Shown piece by piece: positions 6,950 through 10,491 of a stretch of 46,453 bases of DNA. Position 1 is the first letter of the stretch. Every line of letters begins with the position of its first letter. The notes beneath the pieces are model-generated. The model saw only the letters and a program-made list of their open reading frames with translations. It did no database searches and was not told the DNA's origin. This stretch comes from Verrucomicrobiia bacterium. GTDB lineage: Bacteria > Patescibacteriota > UBA1384 > CAILIB01. Made by a program: the position numbers and the translations under genes. The stretch spans positions 1-46,453 of the forward strand of contig DATHWI010000120.1 in assembly GCA_035460805.1 (NCBI GenBank), given 5' to 3'.

Positions 6950-7180
6950 TTAGTTCCCCTTGACCTTGGTCAACAGGAGGACGGTTTGGCCGTCCTCCAG
7001 GACCGTGTCTTTGCCCACGGGGGTCGTGTTCACGCGGAGCTGAAAGCCCTCTGCGTTTTGGAGTTGCGCCGACTTGAGGGCGTCGGCAACGGTTGAACCG
7101 GCAGGCAGTGCGATGGACTTGATTTGACCAGGCACTTTGCCGATTTTGATGGTGATTGTTTTGCTACTATCCTGCGCCAT
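6950..7180 (-). CDS. Ubiquitin-like / ThiS-MoaD-like beta-grasp protein (76 aa), C-terminus KVKGN
   Basis: The size and the tail ...VLEDGQTVLLLTKVKGN resemble beta-grasp Ubl tails. GGAGGAG sits 12 nt upstream. The start is 3 nt after the E1 stop, making it the last gene of the operon. Confidence 0.75.
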   Translation of the reverse strand: MAQDSSKTITIKIGKVPGQIKSIALPAGSTVADALKSAQLQNAEGFQLRVNTTPVGKDTVLEDGQTVLLLTKVKGN

Positions 7181-7183
7181 TTC

Positions 7184-7873
7184 TTACAAACTCCTCCCCA
7201 TAATGAATGAGGACCTCAACCCGAAAATGATTTCGTGCTCGGGCACGTCCTCACTCTTACCTTGATCGTGGGCGAACCAGCGCATGAGCTGCCAGACTGC
7301 GAGTCCGGAAACAATCTCTGCGCTCGGCCCGACCGAAATGTTCGTGCCGCAAGCGGCAACTTCGACGCCGGCTTCGGCATCGTCGTAGAGCGTCTCTTCC
7401 CACATGCGGACATGCTGGATTTGAAACGGGACGATGCTATAGATCCGACCGTTGTCGGTACCCATGCGCGTCTCAATCATGAGGGAAACATGGGGCTTCA
7501 GCTTGATGGCCTTGCCCCAGATCTCCTTTCGGGAACGCATGGTGTCCGTCATGAGGAACACCACGTTGCCCAACTGCTTGCTGCCGTCGGCCGCAAACGG
7601 ATACTGCGTAATTACGGTACCCGTGCTGCGCTTGACGATCTCCGCAAGGGCCTCGACTTTGAGCTGACCGATATGGGCAGTGTCATACACCTGGTTGGCG
7701 ATGTTATGCTCTTCGATCTTGTCAAAGTCCCAGACGTGAATGTTCTGAATGCCTAGCTTGGCCAGGCTCAGGACCACACGGCTGCCAGTGGCGCCGGCGC
7801 CGATTACATCGACGCGACGCTCACCAAAGGCCTCGGGCGAGAAGATTTCGCGGTGGCTAGAGGCATCAACCAC
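7184..7873 (-). CDS. ThiF/MoeB-type E1-like adenylyltransferase (minimal, 229 aa)
   Basis: RVDVIGAGATGSRVVLSLAKLGIQNIHVWDFDKIEEHNIANQ is the E1 dinucleotide-binding and ATP motif. There is a single Cys (VEVAACGTNIS). The GTG start has AAGGAGG upstream and overlaps the JAB stop by 8 nt. Confidence 0.9.
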   Translation of the reverse strand: MVDASSHREIFSPEAFGERRVDVIGAGATGSRVVLSLAKLGIQNIHVWDFDKIEEHNIANQVYDTAHIGQLKVEALAEIVKRSTGTVITQYPFAADGSKQLGNVVFLMTDTMRSRKEIWGKAIKLKPHVSLMIETRMGTDNGRIYSIVPFQIQHVRMWEETLYDDAEAGVEVAACGTNISVGPSAEIVSGLAVWQLMRWFAHDQGKSEDVPEHEIIFGLRSSFIMGRSL

Positions 7874-8684
7874 GGCCGCCTGCCCTCCTTTTCTGCTGCT
7901 TTGTCACCCGTGCGACTACCGGCGGCTTGCCAGGAGGTGTAATCGGGTTTCTCAGGCTGCCCGGCCCAGAGTGGTCATGTTCAAAGTCTTCTTCTGTGAA
8001 TTGATTTTCCAGCCCCTCCTTGGTGCCCACGACGATACGGCTTCCCCTGGAGGGAACGTATACGGGAGGCGGAGGTGGCTTTGACACCGTGACCTTGTCG
8101 AAGAACTCTTGCTCGATACCCGCGCGGAAGTCATCCATCACGGGTTCGTAGATCATCCACGGAAGTTCTGTGATCCGGTACCCATGGTCGTAGTGGTAGA
8201 GGGCAAACGAGGCCTTCCCTTGCTTGTTGAAGATGCCCCGGATAAACCAGGGAGCATCACCACCCGCAAAGACGCCCATCTGCTTCTCGTCCTGACCCGA
8301 GGCCACGGTGTCCATATTCACATGGGAATGCCCCCAGAAACGGAGATTGTTGAGGATCTCCAGTCCGTTGGTATCGCCATGCTTATCCAGGACCTCCATG
8401 GTGAACTCGGCCAGCCCCTCCTCGTCAATCTCGGTGGAGCTGTGGTTGACCTCCTGTTTGAAGAGGAAGACGTCGGTGATCAGGAAGTTTCTGCCTTTCT
8501 GAATCACCGTACCCAACCACCCCACTTCCATGGGGGCAATGTCCACGTAGTGCGCCATCTTGCTGTAGGCCTCTCGGCTGATCAGTATGATGGGCACAGT
8601 GGCAATGACGTCAATTTTGGGCTGGGTGGCGAACGGCGAGAAGCCGCGGACCGCCCCCAATACCCCTGCTAGAAATGCTTGCAT
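7866..8684 (-). CDS. JAB/MPN (JAMM) metallopeptidase with a Pro/Lys-rich C-terminal tail
   Basis: Complete JAMM motif: E in PMEVGWLG, then HSHVNMDTVASGQD (H-x-H-x7-S-x2-D) at 8289-8330. The ATG at 8684 has AAGGAG 6 nt upstream and lies 1 nt after the upstream stop. The ORF opens at 8777, but that extension overlaps the upstream gene. Confidence 0.9.
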   Translation of the reverse strand: MQAFLAGVLGAVRGFSPFATQPKIDVIATVPIILISREAYSKMAHYVDIAPMEVGWLGTVIQKGRNFLITDVFLFKQEVNHSSTEIDEEGLAEFTMEVLDKHGDTNGLEILNNLRFWGHSHVNMDTVASGQDEKQMGVFAGGDAPWFIRGIFNKQGKASFALYHYDHGYRITELPWMIYEPVMDDFRAGIEQEFFDKVTVSKPPPPPVYVPSRGSRIVVGTKEGLENQFTEEDFEHDHSGPGSLRNPITPPGKPPVVARVTKQQKRRAGGRG

Positions 8685-8685
8685 A

Positions 8686-10491
8686 TCAGGCTCCTTGCAC
8701 CTTCTCCTGCGGTTGTTCCTTGGCTTTTGGCCAAGAAGTAATGGTCGGTCCCCACGCCTCATTTGCGTCCACCACATTTACCGATTGGACGAACTCGATG
8801 GCGAGGATGGCAACGGTTGAGAACTCGTAACGGGCTATGAGGTCCGGCAAAACTTGCTTGAGGTTACCCAAGCACGCTTCCCCGCTCTCTTGCACGTGAG
8901 GGGCATTCATCTTGGGTAGGTAGGCATCCACACGACGGGTCGTATTGAACCACCGGACCAGGCCTGAAAGCTGAATCTCGATCTTGAATTCACCAATTTC
9001 GTACACAATGTCGGTACGAGGATCGGTGCAGAACAGCGTGTTGGTATACACGAAGATCCTATCTTGAAGGGATTCCACGCGGCGGACCTGAGGAATACTG
9101 AGGAGGTTGTTAAACTCCTTGGCAAAGTACGTTGCGGTTTCGGATTCGGTTACCCTCATCCCCTGCAACTTGCCATGTTCAAGGTCAAGCTTGCGAATGG
9201 CATCCACCAGTTGGCTTTGCAAGCTTTTGACTTGGTCATCCAACTGGTTTACTACCCTCTCTCCCTTGTCGATTTCCCCCTTGCGCCCCGCCATGCAGCG
9301 GGTAATGTAGCCCTCGCGGTCACGCTCCAGAAAGGCGGCGTCGCGCTCCTTGGGTGTCATTTTCAGAAGCTTTGCGGCTTCCTGGAATGTTCGCTCCAAG
9401 ATCTTCGCCTCGTTCGTGCCGCCCTCGTATGACGCGTTGTGGTGGACGTAGAGGATTCTCTCTTCCACCAACTCGCCAACAGCCCAACCAGTCTCCTGGT
9501 CGGTAATGGCGAGTCCGCGCCCAGAGGGCAGGAATGCGTTGTTGCGATGCGTAACCCCAAATCCCCACATCCGGTTAGGTGCCTGGTTGGACGCCCCTTC
9601 TTGAGGTGACCCCCAGAGCACAACGTGGAACAGGCTGTCTTCCTCGGGGTAGTACGTTTCCGCACGCCTCCCATGAAGGACAATATCCCTTTTGGTGAAG
9701 GGTGCTAGGTGCTCACGAAGCTGCGTGATCACCCTGTCGCTGTTCGTCTCCGATCTCCAGATAGACGCCGTGATGGACTGGTAGCCCACCTGCTTCTTGA
9801 GCGCGGCGTCACTGAGCTTTCGCAACAGCAATACCTGGTCCAAAATCTGCTTGAAGATCCGGGCCTCTCGGACCGAACCGCTGTAAGCCAGGTTATGGAA
9901 GATGTAGAGGTCGTTTTTGCCTACCAACTCCGCCACTGGCCAGCCTGAGTTAGGCTCCAGGATTACCACGCCCGTTTTACTGGGCGGGAAGGGGAACCGT
10001 TGGTAGTCGACTTCGTCGCCCCAGAGCGTCCGGGGCGTTGTCTTACCTTCTAGGTATCTCCCCCTGGGGGCAGACCAAAGGTAAATGTTGAGCCGACTCT
10101 TCTCCTTGATGGGTGCTTGCGCGTTCCCTTCTAGGTCTCGGATCGTCACGTTCACCTTAAGCTCAGGCAGAAGCCCTTTCAGCACGCGAACCAGAGGTTC
10201 GCCCACTGAGCCTCCAAGGCCTGCAAGTTGAATGTCGTACGGGGAGTTTTCGGGCTTTTGGCCTGCAGCCTCCGGTTCAAGCGTTACGTTCATCACACCA
10301 TCCCATGTTGTTGCTTTTCTTCTCTCCTCGACTTCGCGGAGACCCAGAAGCGCAAGCGCCTGTGGGTACACCCCTTCGTCTACTAAGATCCCTTTTTCAC
10401 CATCAAGGTCGAGGTCGCACCAATTAAGGCCGGCCATGTCGAGCTTTTCTCGTTGATCCCCGGTCATACCGGGAAGAAAGTAATTGAGCAT
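8686..10491 (-). CDS. 601-aa protein: two ~130-aa tandem repeats, a coiled coil and a C-terminal E2/UBC-like domain with a candidate catalytic Cys
   Basis: The ATG has GAGGA upstream. The C-terminal FKIEIQL..VRWFNTT..NAPHVQESGEACLGNLKQVLPDLI mirrors the E2 core (F-x-L-x-I..V-x-F-x-T..HPN-x3-4-G-x-I-C-L-D-I-L). The internal duplication is visible by eye. The CDS is confident; the E2 call has moderate confidence. Confidence 0.85.
   Translation of the reverse strand: MLNYFLPGMTGDQREKLDMAGLNWCDLDLDGEKGILVDEGVYPQALALLGLREVEERRKATTWDGVMNVTLEPEAAGQKPENSPYDIQLAGLGGSVGEPLVRVLKGLLPELKVNVTIRDLEGNAQAPIKEKSRLNIYLWSAPRGRYLEGKTTPRTLWGDEVDYQRFPFPPSKTGVVILEPNSGWPVAELVGKNDLYIFHNLAYSGSVREARIFKQILDQVLLLRKLSDAALKKQVGYQSITASIWRSETNSDRVITQLREHLAPFTKRDIVLHGRRAETYYPEEDSLFHVVLWGSPQEGASNQAPNRMWGFGVTHRNNAFLPSGRGLAITDQETGWAVGELVEERILYVHHNASYEGGTNEAKILERTFQEAAKLLKMTPKERDAAFLERDREGYITRCMAGRKGEIDKGERVVNQLDDQVKSLQSQLVDAIRKLDLEHGKLQGMRVTESETATYFAKEFNNLLSIPQVRRVESLQDRIFVYTNTLFCTDPRTDIVYEIGEFKIEIQLSGLVRWFNTTRRVDAYLPKMNAPHVQESGEACLGNLKQVLPDLIARYEFSTVAILAIEFVQSVNVVDANEAWGPTITSWPKAKEQPQEKVQGA

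Follow-up and report, generated by a model that had tools for sequence, protein, structure and literature searches.

A predicted ubiquitin-like conjugation cassette with a modular E2-like protein in candidate phyla radiation bacteria and huge phages

A four-gene cassette predicted to attach and remove a ubiquitin-like protein

Contig DATHWI010000120.1 (assembly GCA_035460805.1, Patescibacteriota), analysed as a single stretch of 46,453 nt that we refer to as the window, carries a cassette of four minus-strand genes at 6950–10491. These encode a 601-aa protein whose C-terminal domain is predicted to resemble ubiquitin-conjugating enzymes (E2), a 272-aa JAMM-type peptidase, a 229-aa ubiquitin-activating-type enzyme (E1) and a 76-aa ubiquitin-like protein (Ubl). 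Sequence comparison and structural modelling together suggest that the cassette is probably a self-contained module for conjugation and deconjugation of the Ubl, acting independently of a ubiquitin ligase (E3). The genes, in transcriptional order, are as follows.

8686–10491, minus strand: E2-like gene, 601 aa, ATG start, Shine–Dalgarno (SD) sequence GAGGAA
7866–8684, minus strand: JAMM gene, 272 aa, ATG start, SD AAGGAG
7184–7873, minus strand: E1 gene, 229 aa, GTG start, SD AAGGAGG
6950–7180, minus strand: Ubl gene, 76 aa, ATG start, SD GGAGGAG

An earlier reading of this DNA, made from its letters alone (hereafter the original prediction), had described four same-strand genes, each with an SD sequence, of which the first two lie 1 nt apart, the second and third overlap by 8 nt and the last two lie 3 nt apart. 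Inspection of the open reading frames (ORFs) and SD sequences agreed in every detail and placed these junctions at 8685, 7866–7873 and 7181–7183, respectively. All the peptides it had quoted are present as written, and the codon of the C-terminal cysteine is at 8872–8874. Related loci were gathered from species-representative genomes, IMG/VR, JGI metagenomes and homolog look-ups, giving 47 loci (L001–L047), 39 of them distinct. According to custom hidden Markov models (HMMs), almost all of the 39 that are of sufficient length have the genes on a single strand in the order E2-like, JAMM, E1, Ubl, so the four-gene neighbourhood is conserved elsewhere, as the original prediction would require.

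The E1 and the ubiquitin-like protein

The 229-aa protein is, by its sequence, a minimal E1 of the homodimer type with a single ThiF adenylation domain. It matched Pfam ThiF (PF00899) over residues 18–203 (E=3.2e-19; 69.5 bits against a cut-off of 28.1), and hhalign matched the E1 to Escherichia coli MoeB with a probability of 96.8 % and E=2.4e-10; the reference sequences for this and the other hhalign comparisons (MoeB, ThiS, Rpn11 and Ubc13) were entered by hand. Residues G25, G27, G30, S31, D49, D51, H56, N57, N60, Q61, K72, D110, R115, R136 and C175 were invariant in all 32 distinct orthologs. Together, the Pfam match, the MoeB alignment and these invariant motif residues uphold the earlier assignment to the ThiF/MoeB type. 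The protein has no second adenylation domain, inserted Cys domain or CxxC zinc motifs, and its counterparts in other loci range from 219 to 262 aa. Manual alignment put Cys175 eight residues ahead of a conserved proline, like MoeB Cys187, which would place it in the E1 crossover loop; the hhalign alignment ends before that point.

7781–7801, minus strand: E1 GxGxxGS motif, nucleotide-binding loop
7349–7351, minus strand: E1 Cys175, sole cysteine of the E1
6956–6958, minus strand: Gly75 of the Ubl tail ...KVKG75-N76
6953–6955, minus strand: Asn76, completing the Gly-Asn terminus

Searches of PADLOC returned generic E1 matches only, with E1–E2 models down to E=6e-14 covering E1 residues 8–93. 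When a profile of 22 E1 sequences was compared with the PDB, MccB came top at 48.9 bits, followed by Uba1 (45.8) and UBA5 (44.5). A special kinship with MccB was considered and downgraded: its lead over Uba1, UBA5 and PaaA is about 3–4 bits and concerns the Rossmann part only.

The 76-aa protein is a ThiS-like Ubl. It passed the Pfam ThiS threshold marginally (23.8 bits against a cut-off of 22.5), and an 18-sequence family profile aligned with E. coli ThiS by hhalign (E=6.6e-5), setting Gly75 on the penultimate Gly of ThiS. These matches favour the beta-grasp-like character that had been proposed for it.

The JAMM-type peptidase

The 272-aa protein is assigned to the JAMM/MPN+-type metallopeptidases from its sequence. 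The motif E...HxHx7Sx2D is complete, as the original prediction had held, and comprises the following residues.

8526–8528, minus strand: Glu53
8328–8330, minus strand: His119
8322–8324, minus strand: His121
8298–8300, minus strand: Ser129
8289–8291, minus strand: Asp132

The window protein had no match in Pfam (including JAB and Prok-JAB), NCBIfam, PADLOC or PHROGs, and none of its 138 homologs carries a Pfam domain. Among 50 homologs, E53, H119, H121 and D132 were invariant and S129 was at least 90 % conserved. The family profile aligned with human Rpn11 over 121 columns (hhalign, E=1.5e-3) with the E, HxH, S and D positions all in register. Prok-JAB scored below threshold in 20 of the 50 family members (best E=0.011), and the sole PDB profile match at E<=10 was the deubiquitinase BRCC36, at the motif.

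The C-terminal domain of the 601-aa protein resembles E2 enzymes

8698–9135, minus strand: UBC-like domain, residues 453–598 (His532 at 8896–8898, Cys540 at 8872–8874)

An AlphaFold 2 (AF2) model of residues 452–601, built from a 37-sequence alignment, had a predicted local distance difference test score (pLDDT) of 89.2 and a predicted template-modelling score of 0.84. Its elements run in the order helix, four strands, long loop, three helices. Foldseek searches of the PDB gave Ubc13 (1j7d_B) as the best match (E=6e-3, probability 1.0, template-modelling (TM) score 0.49, 23 % identity), followed by UBE2H, a Leishmania E2, UBE2R2, UbcH5c and UbcH7, with weak matches to the CorA N-terminal domain scattered among the E2 enzymes. 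The domain thus models as a UBC fold, with E2 enzymes as its best PDB matches at modest scores. In BFVD, a library of viral structures, the best matches were uncharacterised proteins of uncultured phages, with TM scores up to 0.61.

The original prediction had read the last ~110 aa as mirroring the E2 core, and the profile comparison bears this out. In an hhalign alignment with Ubc13 (E=5.8e-4), Cys540 is paired with Cys87, the catalytic residue, and His532 with Asn79 of the oxyanion hole, so that (A/H)-P-H-V-x3-G-x-A-C-L-G-N is matched with H-P-N-V-x3-G-R-I-C-L-D-I and the E2 Asn is replaced by His. Conservation among 150 representatives of the family is concentrated in this region: G500, N516, P531 and P588 were kept in all 150, C540 in 149, H532, G537 and W587 in 148 and G542 in 147. 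The cysteine on which the E2 reading depends is therefore conserved.

Sequence profiles were less informative. The profile of the C-terminal domain met nothing in the PDB at E<=10, the window protein had no match to UQ_con (PF00179) or the Prok-E2 families at E<=1, and a single member of 37 matched UQ_con, at E=0.073. Given the modest scores for the fold and the failure of sequence profiles to detect E2s, we regard the UBC/E2-like assignment of the modelled domain as well supported but not proven.

A large family with variable target-side modules

The E2-like protein belongs to a large family, in which an exhaustive HMMER search found 1,613 clusters (at 50 % identity) with a threshold of E<=1e-3, and 900 when the threshold was E<=1e-10. 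The 601-aa protein had no match in Pfam, NCBIfam, PADLOC or PHROGs, and word-indexed homolog searches with the 601-aa query or a 48-sequence profile yielded nothing beyond the protein itself, probably because they were swamped by coiled-coil words. The same protein is present in NCBI assembly GCA_041287945.1. Custom domain HMMs resolved a family architecture of an N-terminal domain (NT), one to five repeats that we call MID, and a coiled coil joined to the C-terminal domain. A single MID was present in 70 of the top 150 representatives, and a pair in 37. In the window protein the modules preceding the UBC-like domain are:

10267–10491, minus strand: NT domain, residues 1–75 (HMM E=5.8e-23; AF2 pLDDT ~90; beta-alpha-beta-beta-alpha-beta)
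9775–10227, minus strand: MID repeat 1, residues 89–239 (HMM E=4.3e-32)
9310–9774, minus strand: MID repeat 2, residues 240–394 (HMM E=2.3e-47)
9136–9309, minus strand: coiled-coil helical linker, approximately residues 395–452, where the full-length profile meets only coiled-coil PDB proteins

The HMM-matched C-terminal region spans residues 392–598. MID1 and MID2 share 29 % identity (BLASTP, E=3e-19), which accounts for the large size of the 601-aa protein through internal duplication and accessory modules, and MID2 aligns with the single MID of homologs of 435–468 aa. A second cysteine, Cys399 in the coiled-coil linker, is near-invariant (111 of the 150 representatives, with 20 gaps).

AF2 modelled the N-terminal 394 residues with a pLDDT of 88.2, and Foldseek found no PDB match to this model below E=1e-3. 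NT bears a weak likeness to PrgK/EscJ, PstA and ACT-like domains. The best matches of MID were class-I glutamine-amidotransferase-like domains (E ~1e-2, TM<=0.32). An active glutamine amidotransferase was rejected, since the Foldseek likeness is weak and MID has no conserved Cys-His-Glu triad, only glycines being near-invariant. NT and MID are best read as non-catalytic binding modules.

Two variants of this architecture were observed. In seven loci (L012, L014, L015, L019, L031, L038 and L044) the E2-like gene is split into two adjacent ORFs, one encoding NT/MID and the other the coiled coil and UBC-like domain; target-side modules and catalytic domain can therefore be separate polypeptides. 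Some two-MID members, for example those starting MFDQPLLLGLVLFAAAAAILG..., have a hydrophobic, transmembrane-like segment ahead of NT, so some versions of the E2-like protein may be membrane-anchored.

The Ubl ends in Gly-Asn and can occur as head-to-tail units

The original prediction had likened the Ubl tail to those of ThiS, MoaD and ubiquitin. The protein is indeed ThiS-like, but the tail is not a generic one: in place of the C-terminal Gly-Gly of the ThiS/MoaD type it ends Gly75-Asn76, and Gly-Asn is the rule in the family. Of 23 readable tails, 13 end exactly at Gly-Asn (one of them Ala-Asn) and two end Gly-Ala. The Ubls of five loci have one or two residues beyond the Asn (C, A, S, R or KS), whilst those of four loci are multi-unit with internal ...KGN|next-unit junctions. 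Essentially throughout, the residue that follows the conserved Gly is Asn (rarely Ala), and anything beyond it is variable or absent.

The most elaborate of the multi-unit genes is a seven-unit poly-Ubl at L004:9539-11052. Its head-to-tail units are of 216 nt, and each codes for a ThiS-like Ubl of 72 aa. The DNA of five of them is identical, and in the other two a 1-nt insertion interrupts the frame. These two insertions are probably long-read assembly errors. If both are, the gene resembles eukaryotic polyubiquitin, with units joined as ...KKIKGN-GGPGYISV... and a 20-aa tail after the last. Yeast UBI4 is similarly built of units in tandem, and its last unit carries an extra Asn. The head-to-tail units and the extension imply maturation by a protease and, subject to the same condition on the insertions, suggest that the JAMM peptidase matures Ubl precursors, in the way that QbsD processes QbsE, the Bub JAMM peptidase BubAB, and deubiquitinases polyubiquitin. 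Unlike polyubiquitin, the L004 gene has a ThiS-like unit, ...KGN-GGPG... joints and a frame interrupted twice, and lies on a phage-like prokaryotic contig.

ORFs matching the Ubl profile were unusually long in three further places, L011:6010-6984 (324 aa), L030:4577-5245 (222 aa) and L038:8718-10649 (643 aa); in L011 the Ubl domain has a long C-terminal extension beyond an internal ...KGNGG junction. A 188-kb IMG/VR contig (L013, shared with L040) holds a second E1 and a di-Ubl gene at L013:313-1454, both units ending ...KGA, approximately 4 kb upstream of a full cassette and with a transposase gene between.

Since Gly75 aligns with the penultimate Gly of ThiS, Asn76 stands in place of the terminal Gly that is activated there. 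This register, together with the pattern of a conserved Asn followed by variable residues, would favour a mature tag that includes the Asn, whilst the precedent of known Ubls favours Gly as the activated or scissile residue, a choice that sequence alone cannot make. Were the mature Ubl to end in Asn, the E1 might act in the manner of MccB, which adenylates the C-terminal Asn of MccA. A succinimide or an Asn- or nucleotide-linked adduct would then form instead of a Gly-Lys isopeptide, with the E2-like and JAMM proteins handling the unusual linkage. Such chemistry would explain why the Asn is conserved and so often final (13 of the 23 clear tails), why it sits at the position of the activated Gly of ThiS, and why MccB heads the PDB matches of the E1 profile. 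That lead is, however, marginal and limited to the Rossmann part, the 229-aa E1 has no counterpart of the N-terminal peptide-clamp domain of MccB, and no genes for Mcc-type export, immunity or modification recur nearby. A conserved residue after the Gly could equally be a P1' requirement of the JAMM peptidase. We consider such chemistry at a terminal Asn improbable.

Hosts and genomic context

Named sources of the cassette included Paceibacterota, Parcubacteria, Saccharibacteria, Uhrbacteria and Obscuribacter/Obscuribacterales, along with two metagenome-assembled genomes labelled Flavobacteriaceae and Candidimonas. A pattern-limited search of 185,579 species representatives found seven loci. 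JAMM homologs lie within an identically ordered set of the four genes on three kinds of contig: one of 742 kb from Candidatus Paceibacterota, one of 189 kb that also encodes SSB, gyrase/topoisomerase and methyltransferases, and one of 76 kb that has a recombinase, methyltransferases and a faint match to terminase. The neighbours of the cassette in L003 and L004 look phage-like, and the cassette was also found on four IMG/VR contigs of 164–208 kb, flanked by genes for a phage-type helicase, thymidylate synthase and transposase. No relative was found in GenBank phages or PLSDB plasmids.

Clustering of flanking ORFs across the 39 loci revealed no conserved fifth gene. The only recurrent neighbour family was a TrmB-type regulator, within 5 kb in four of the 39. 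A regulatory link is doubtful given this low count and because, in the window, a convergent ORF with its own terminator separates TrmB from the cassette. Four TrmB-family helix-turn-helix paralogs are present in the window, at 3105–3851 (minus), 5476–6264 (minus), 39806–40558 (plus) and 40996–41718 (plus).

The cassette might instead provide a housekeeping tag for regulation or proteostasis in bacteria of the candidate phyla radiation (CPR), comparable to SAMP or TtuB, in which case the copies on phages would have been acquired from hosts and would have no part in conflict. The gene content of the window does look cellular (CCA-adding enzyme, TerC, methyltransferases and TrmB regulators), and both it and the 742-kb Paceibacterota contig hold ordinary cellular genes without markers of defence islands or prophages; the PADLOC results, confined to generic E1 matches, are consistent with this. 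On the other hand, the distribution looks patchy within the limits of the pattern search, the contexts are unrelated to one another, the architecture varies in repeat number and in split or fused genes, and the cassette occurs repeatedly on huge-phage contigs. A housekeeping tag seems to us rather unlikely. Because of the unrelated contexts, carriage by huge phages, variable target-side repeats and lack of a conserved fifth gene, we prefer, with low confidence, a role in virus–host or virus–virus conflict in which a foreign or host protein would be tagged.

Comparison with known systems

Definitions of the known systems were taken from PMC11601596 and PMC1779556. Set against these descriptions, the cassette looks like a Ubl conjugation system that stands outside every named family: it lacks defining features of Bil, of Bub, of CBASS-Cap2/3 and of PRTRC, in line with the unfamiliar architecture reported in the original prediction. 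Full-text literature searches of an incomplete library found no description of the cassette.

Bil operons, of Types I and II (Iyer 2006 class 6d; PMC11601596, PMC10557695), are alike in having four separate genes for Ubl, E2, JAB/JAMM and E1, no E3 and an expected Cys thioester chemistry, and their E2 is thought to choose the target. They differ in several respects. Here one adenylation domain, with a predicted crossover-loop Cys, makes up the whole 229-aa E1, and whereas the Bil E2 is small and stands alone, the E2-like domain here ends a protein of NT, MID and coiled-coil modules. The Bil E2 lacks a His before its Cys (Iyer 2006), unlike the E2-like domain of the cassette, which keeps P-H. 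The Ubl terminus is Gly-Asn, and it is in CPR bacteria and huge phages that the cassette resides.

Bub operons (6E/DUF6527, Types I and II; PMC11601596) share sets of Ubl, E1 and E2 genes and a JAMM peptidase that cleaves a precursor to free the Ubl. Their Ubls contain between one and three domains of the beta-grasp type, and the JAMM peptidase matures BubAB (PMC11601596). In contrast to the cassette, in which Cys175 and Cys540 are conserved, Bub systems form Ser oxyesters and have no catalytic Cys. Their proteins occur as fusions, either Ubl-E2 alongside JAB-E1 or E2-E1, whilst the cassette has four separate genes. The Bub DUF6527 serine protease BubE was absent from the neighbours in the window by Pfam scan, and no conserved fifth gene was found in the 39 loci.

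Type II CBASS (cyclic-oligonucleotide-based antiphage signalling system) likewise employs E1, E2 and JAB enzymology in a conflict system, and PADLOC indicated that the Rossmann region of the E1 is shared. In Cap2, however, E2 and E1 are fused, and it is the CD-NTase itself that is conjugated; the fusion is encoded beside a CD-NTase and an effector. The cassette has no such fusion and no effector but has a dedicated Ubl, and no CD-NTase was found among the neighbours in the window or the flanking genes of the 39 loci. A PRTRC cassette combines the PRTRC ThiF protein (TIGR03736) with ParB-related and PRTRC A–F genes; here TIGR03736 scored 32 bits against a cut-off of 144.75, and the other three proteins matched no PRTRC model.

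A combination of ThiS/MoaD-like protein, ThiF-type E1 and JAMM peptidase is also found in sulfur-carrier systems (QbsE/QbsD/QbsC; CysO/Mec+), in archaeal SAMP/UbaA/HvJAMM1 and in Thermus TtuB/TtuC. The QbsE precursor ends ...GGCF, the extra C-terminal residues being removed by a JAMM peptidase. The cassette could thus represent a sulfur-carrier pathway, in which a Ubl of the ThiS/MoaD/CysO/QbsE type would be trimmed by the JAMM protein (as Mec+ trims CysO), adenylated by the E1 and thiocarboxylated, and conserved cysteines of the 601-aa protein would relay persulfide sulfur. The Ubl is closest to ThiS, the E1 is of the minimal ThiF/MoeB type and has no Cys domain of its own, C399 and C540 are both conserved in the 601-aa protein, and JAMM peptidases are established partners of sulfur carriers (QbsCDE, with QbsD acting on QbsE, and CysO/Mec+; discussed in PMC1779556). 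Yet the sulfur-carrier systems have no E2, Gly-Gly carriers rather than Gly-Asn, and linked sulfur or biosynthetic genes. No gene for rhodanese, cysteine desulfurase, ThiG/ThiH, MoaE, CysM or other biosynthetic functions recurred near the cassette in the 39 loci or was present in the window. Carriage by huge phages and a C-terminal domain that resembles E2 enzymes, not sulfurtransferases, likewise speak against sulfur transfer, and the poly-Ubl gene is without parallel among sulfur carriers. This explanation appears improbable, slightly more so than activation at Asn.

Proposed mechanism and its weight

Under the favoured interpretation of E3-independent conjugation, the JAMM peptidase would trim a Ubl with residues past Gly-Asn, or a multi-unit precursor, to expose a conjugation-competent C-terminus. 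The E1 would adenylate that C-terminus with ATP and then load the Ubl onto Cys175 of the crossover loop, from which transthioesterification would move it to Cys540 of the E2-like domain. NT and the one to five MID repeats, probably dimerised through the coiled coil, would select the target. Transfer to a target amine would occur without a separate E3, as has been proposed for Bil E2s, and the JAMM peptidase could reverse the mark.

Several points weigh against this interpretation. Structural support for the E2 fold is modest, with Foldseek E-values of 6e-3 or weaker and TM scores of ~0.4–0.5, and no profile search reaches E2 at significance. The JAMM and Ubl assignments come from comparison of sequences. 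A thioester at the E1 is not certain, because the cysteine of MoeB equivalent to Cys175 is dispensable. No conjugating Ubl is known to end in Gly-Asn, and because this terminus is unprecedented the C-terminal chemistry may differ from the canonical scheme. No target, E3, defence-associated regulator (CapW/BrxR, CapH/CapP) or defence-island context was found in the window.

A bolder extension is that the cassette represents an undescribed Ubl lineage of CPR bacteria and huge phages, defined by poly-Ubl precursors, activation at Asn (possibly through an MccB-like succinimide) and an E2 whose own array of one to five repeats recognises targets. We view this as a tentative possibility, doubtful to about the same degree as a housekeeping tag. 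The bacterial Ubl lineages characterised so far (CBASS-Cap2/3, Bil and Bub) come from well-studied phyla and are linked to antiphage defence. The cassette would add a fourth, with its own E2 and JAMM families, and both huge phages and CPR/Patescibacteria, with their reduced genomes, would join the known bearers of Ubl conjugation. What distinguishes it is the modular E2-like protein, the minimal Cys-bearing E1, the Gly-Asn tag with a possible poly-precursor and the distribution across CPR bacteria and huge phages; conserved catalytic residues are the basis for the proposed mechanism. Approximately 1,600 clusters of the E2-like protein (at 50 % identity) are invisible to Pfam, NCBIfam, PADLOC and PHROGs, and the cassette shows a path to annotating a large set of hypothetical proteins from metagenomes. 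The Gly-Asn terminus and the poly-Ubl gene raise questions about how a Ubl C-terminus is matured and activated, whilst the repeat array fused to the E2-like domain would offer a route to studying E3-independent choice of target.

Boundaries of the cassette and flanking features

Family conservation guided the choice of start codons. The N-terminus MLNYF of the E2-like protein fits the family consensus MxNYF and supports a start at 10491. The longest ORF of the JAMM gene extends to 8777, and family consensus favours a start at 8684, giving an N-terminus that includes the FxPHxF region typical of the family. Public gene calls are shorter, at 593 aa for the E2-like protein (from Met9) and 233 aa for the JAMM protein, and are probably truncated, given that family-conserved N-terminal residues lie upstream of their starts.

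6890–6925, minus strand: intrinsic terminator, a GC-rich hairpin (10–11 bp) at 6900–6925 followed by TTTTTT; the 10-nt arms are 100 % complementary
10602–10631, strand not assigned: inverted repeat with 14-nt arms, 93 % complementary, and a 2-nt loop, within the spacer of 161 nt that precedes the E2-like gene

The terminator that had been proposed to close the operon was recovered as an 11-pair hairpin with a T-run. Facing the cassette is a convergent plus-strand ORF at 6165–6854 with its own hairpin-plus-T terminator at 6865–6885, which makes the cassette a bounded unit. This ORF had no Pfam match and probably begins close to 6354; the other strand holds an overlapping ORF of 178 aa.

Elsewhere in the window, a 713-aa CobT_C/VWA protein encoded at 41750–43891 (plus) had a sub-threshold match to Pfam UBM ('ubiquitin binding region'; E=2.9e-4), probably by chance, although such a match stands out next to a Ubl system in one genome. 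The inverted repeat at 10602–10631, flanked by a CMD-family gene (10653–11201, same strand) and the E2-like start, has no T-run after it on either strand, and may act as an operator or terminate transcription of the CMD gene that lies upstream.

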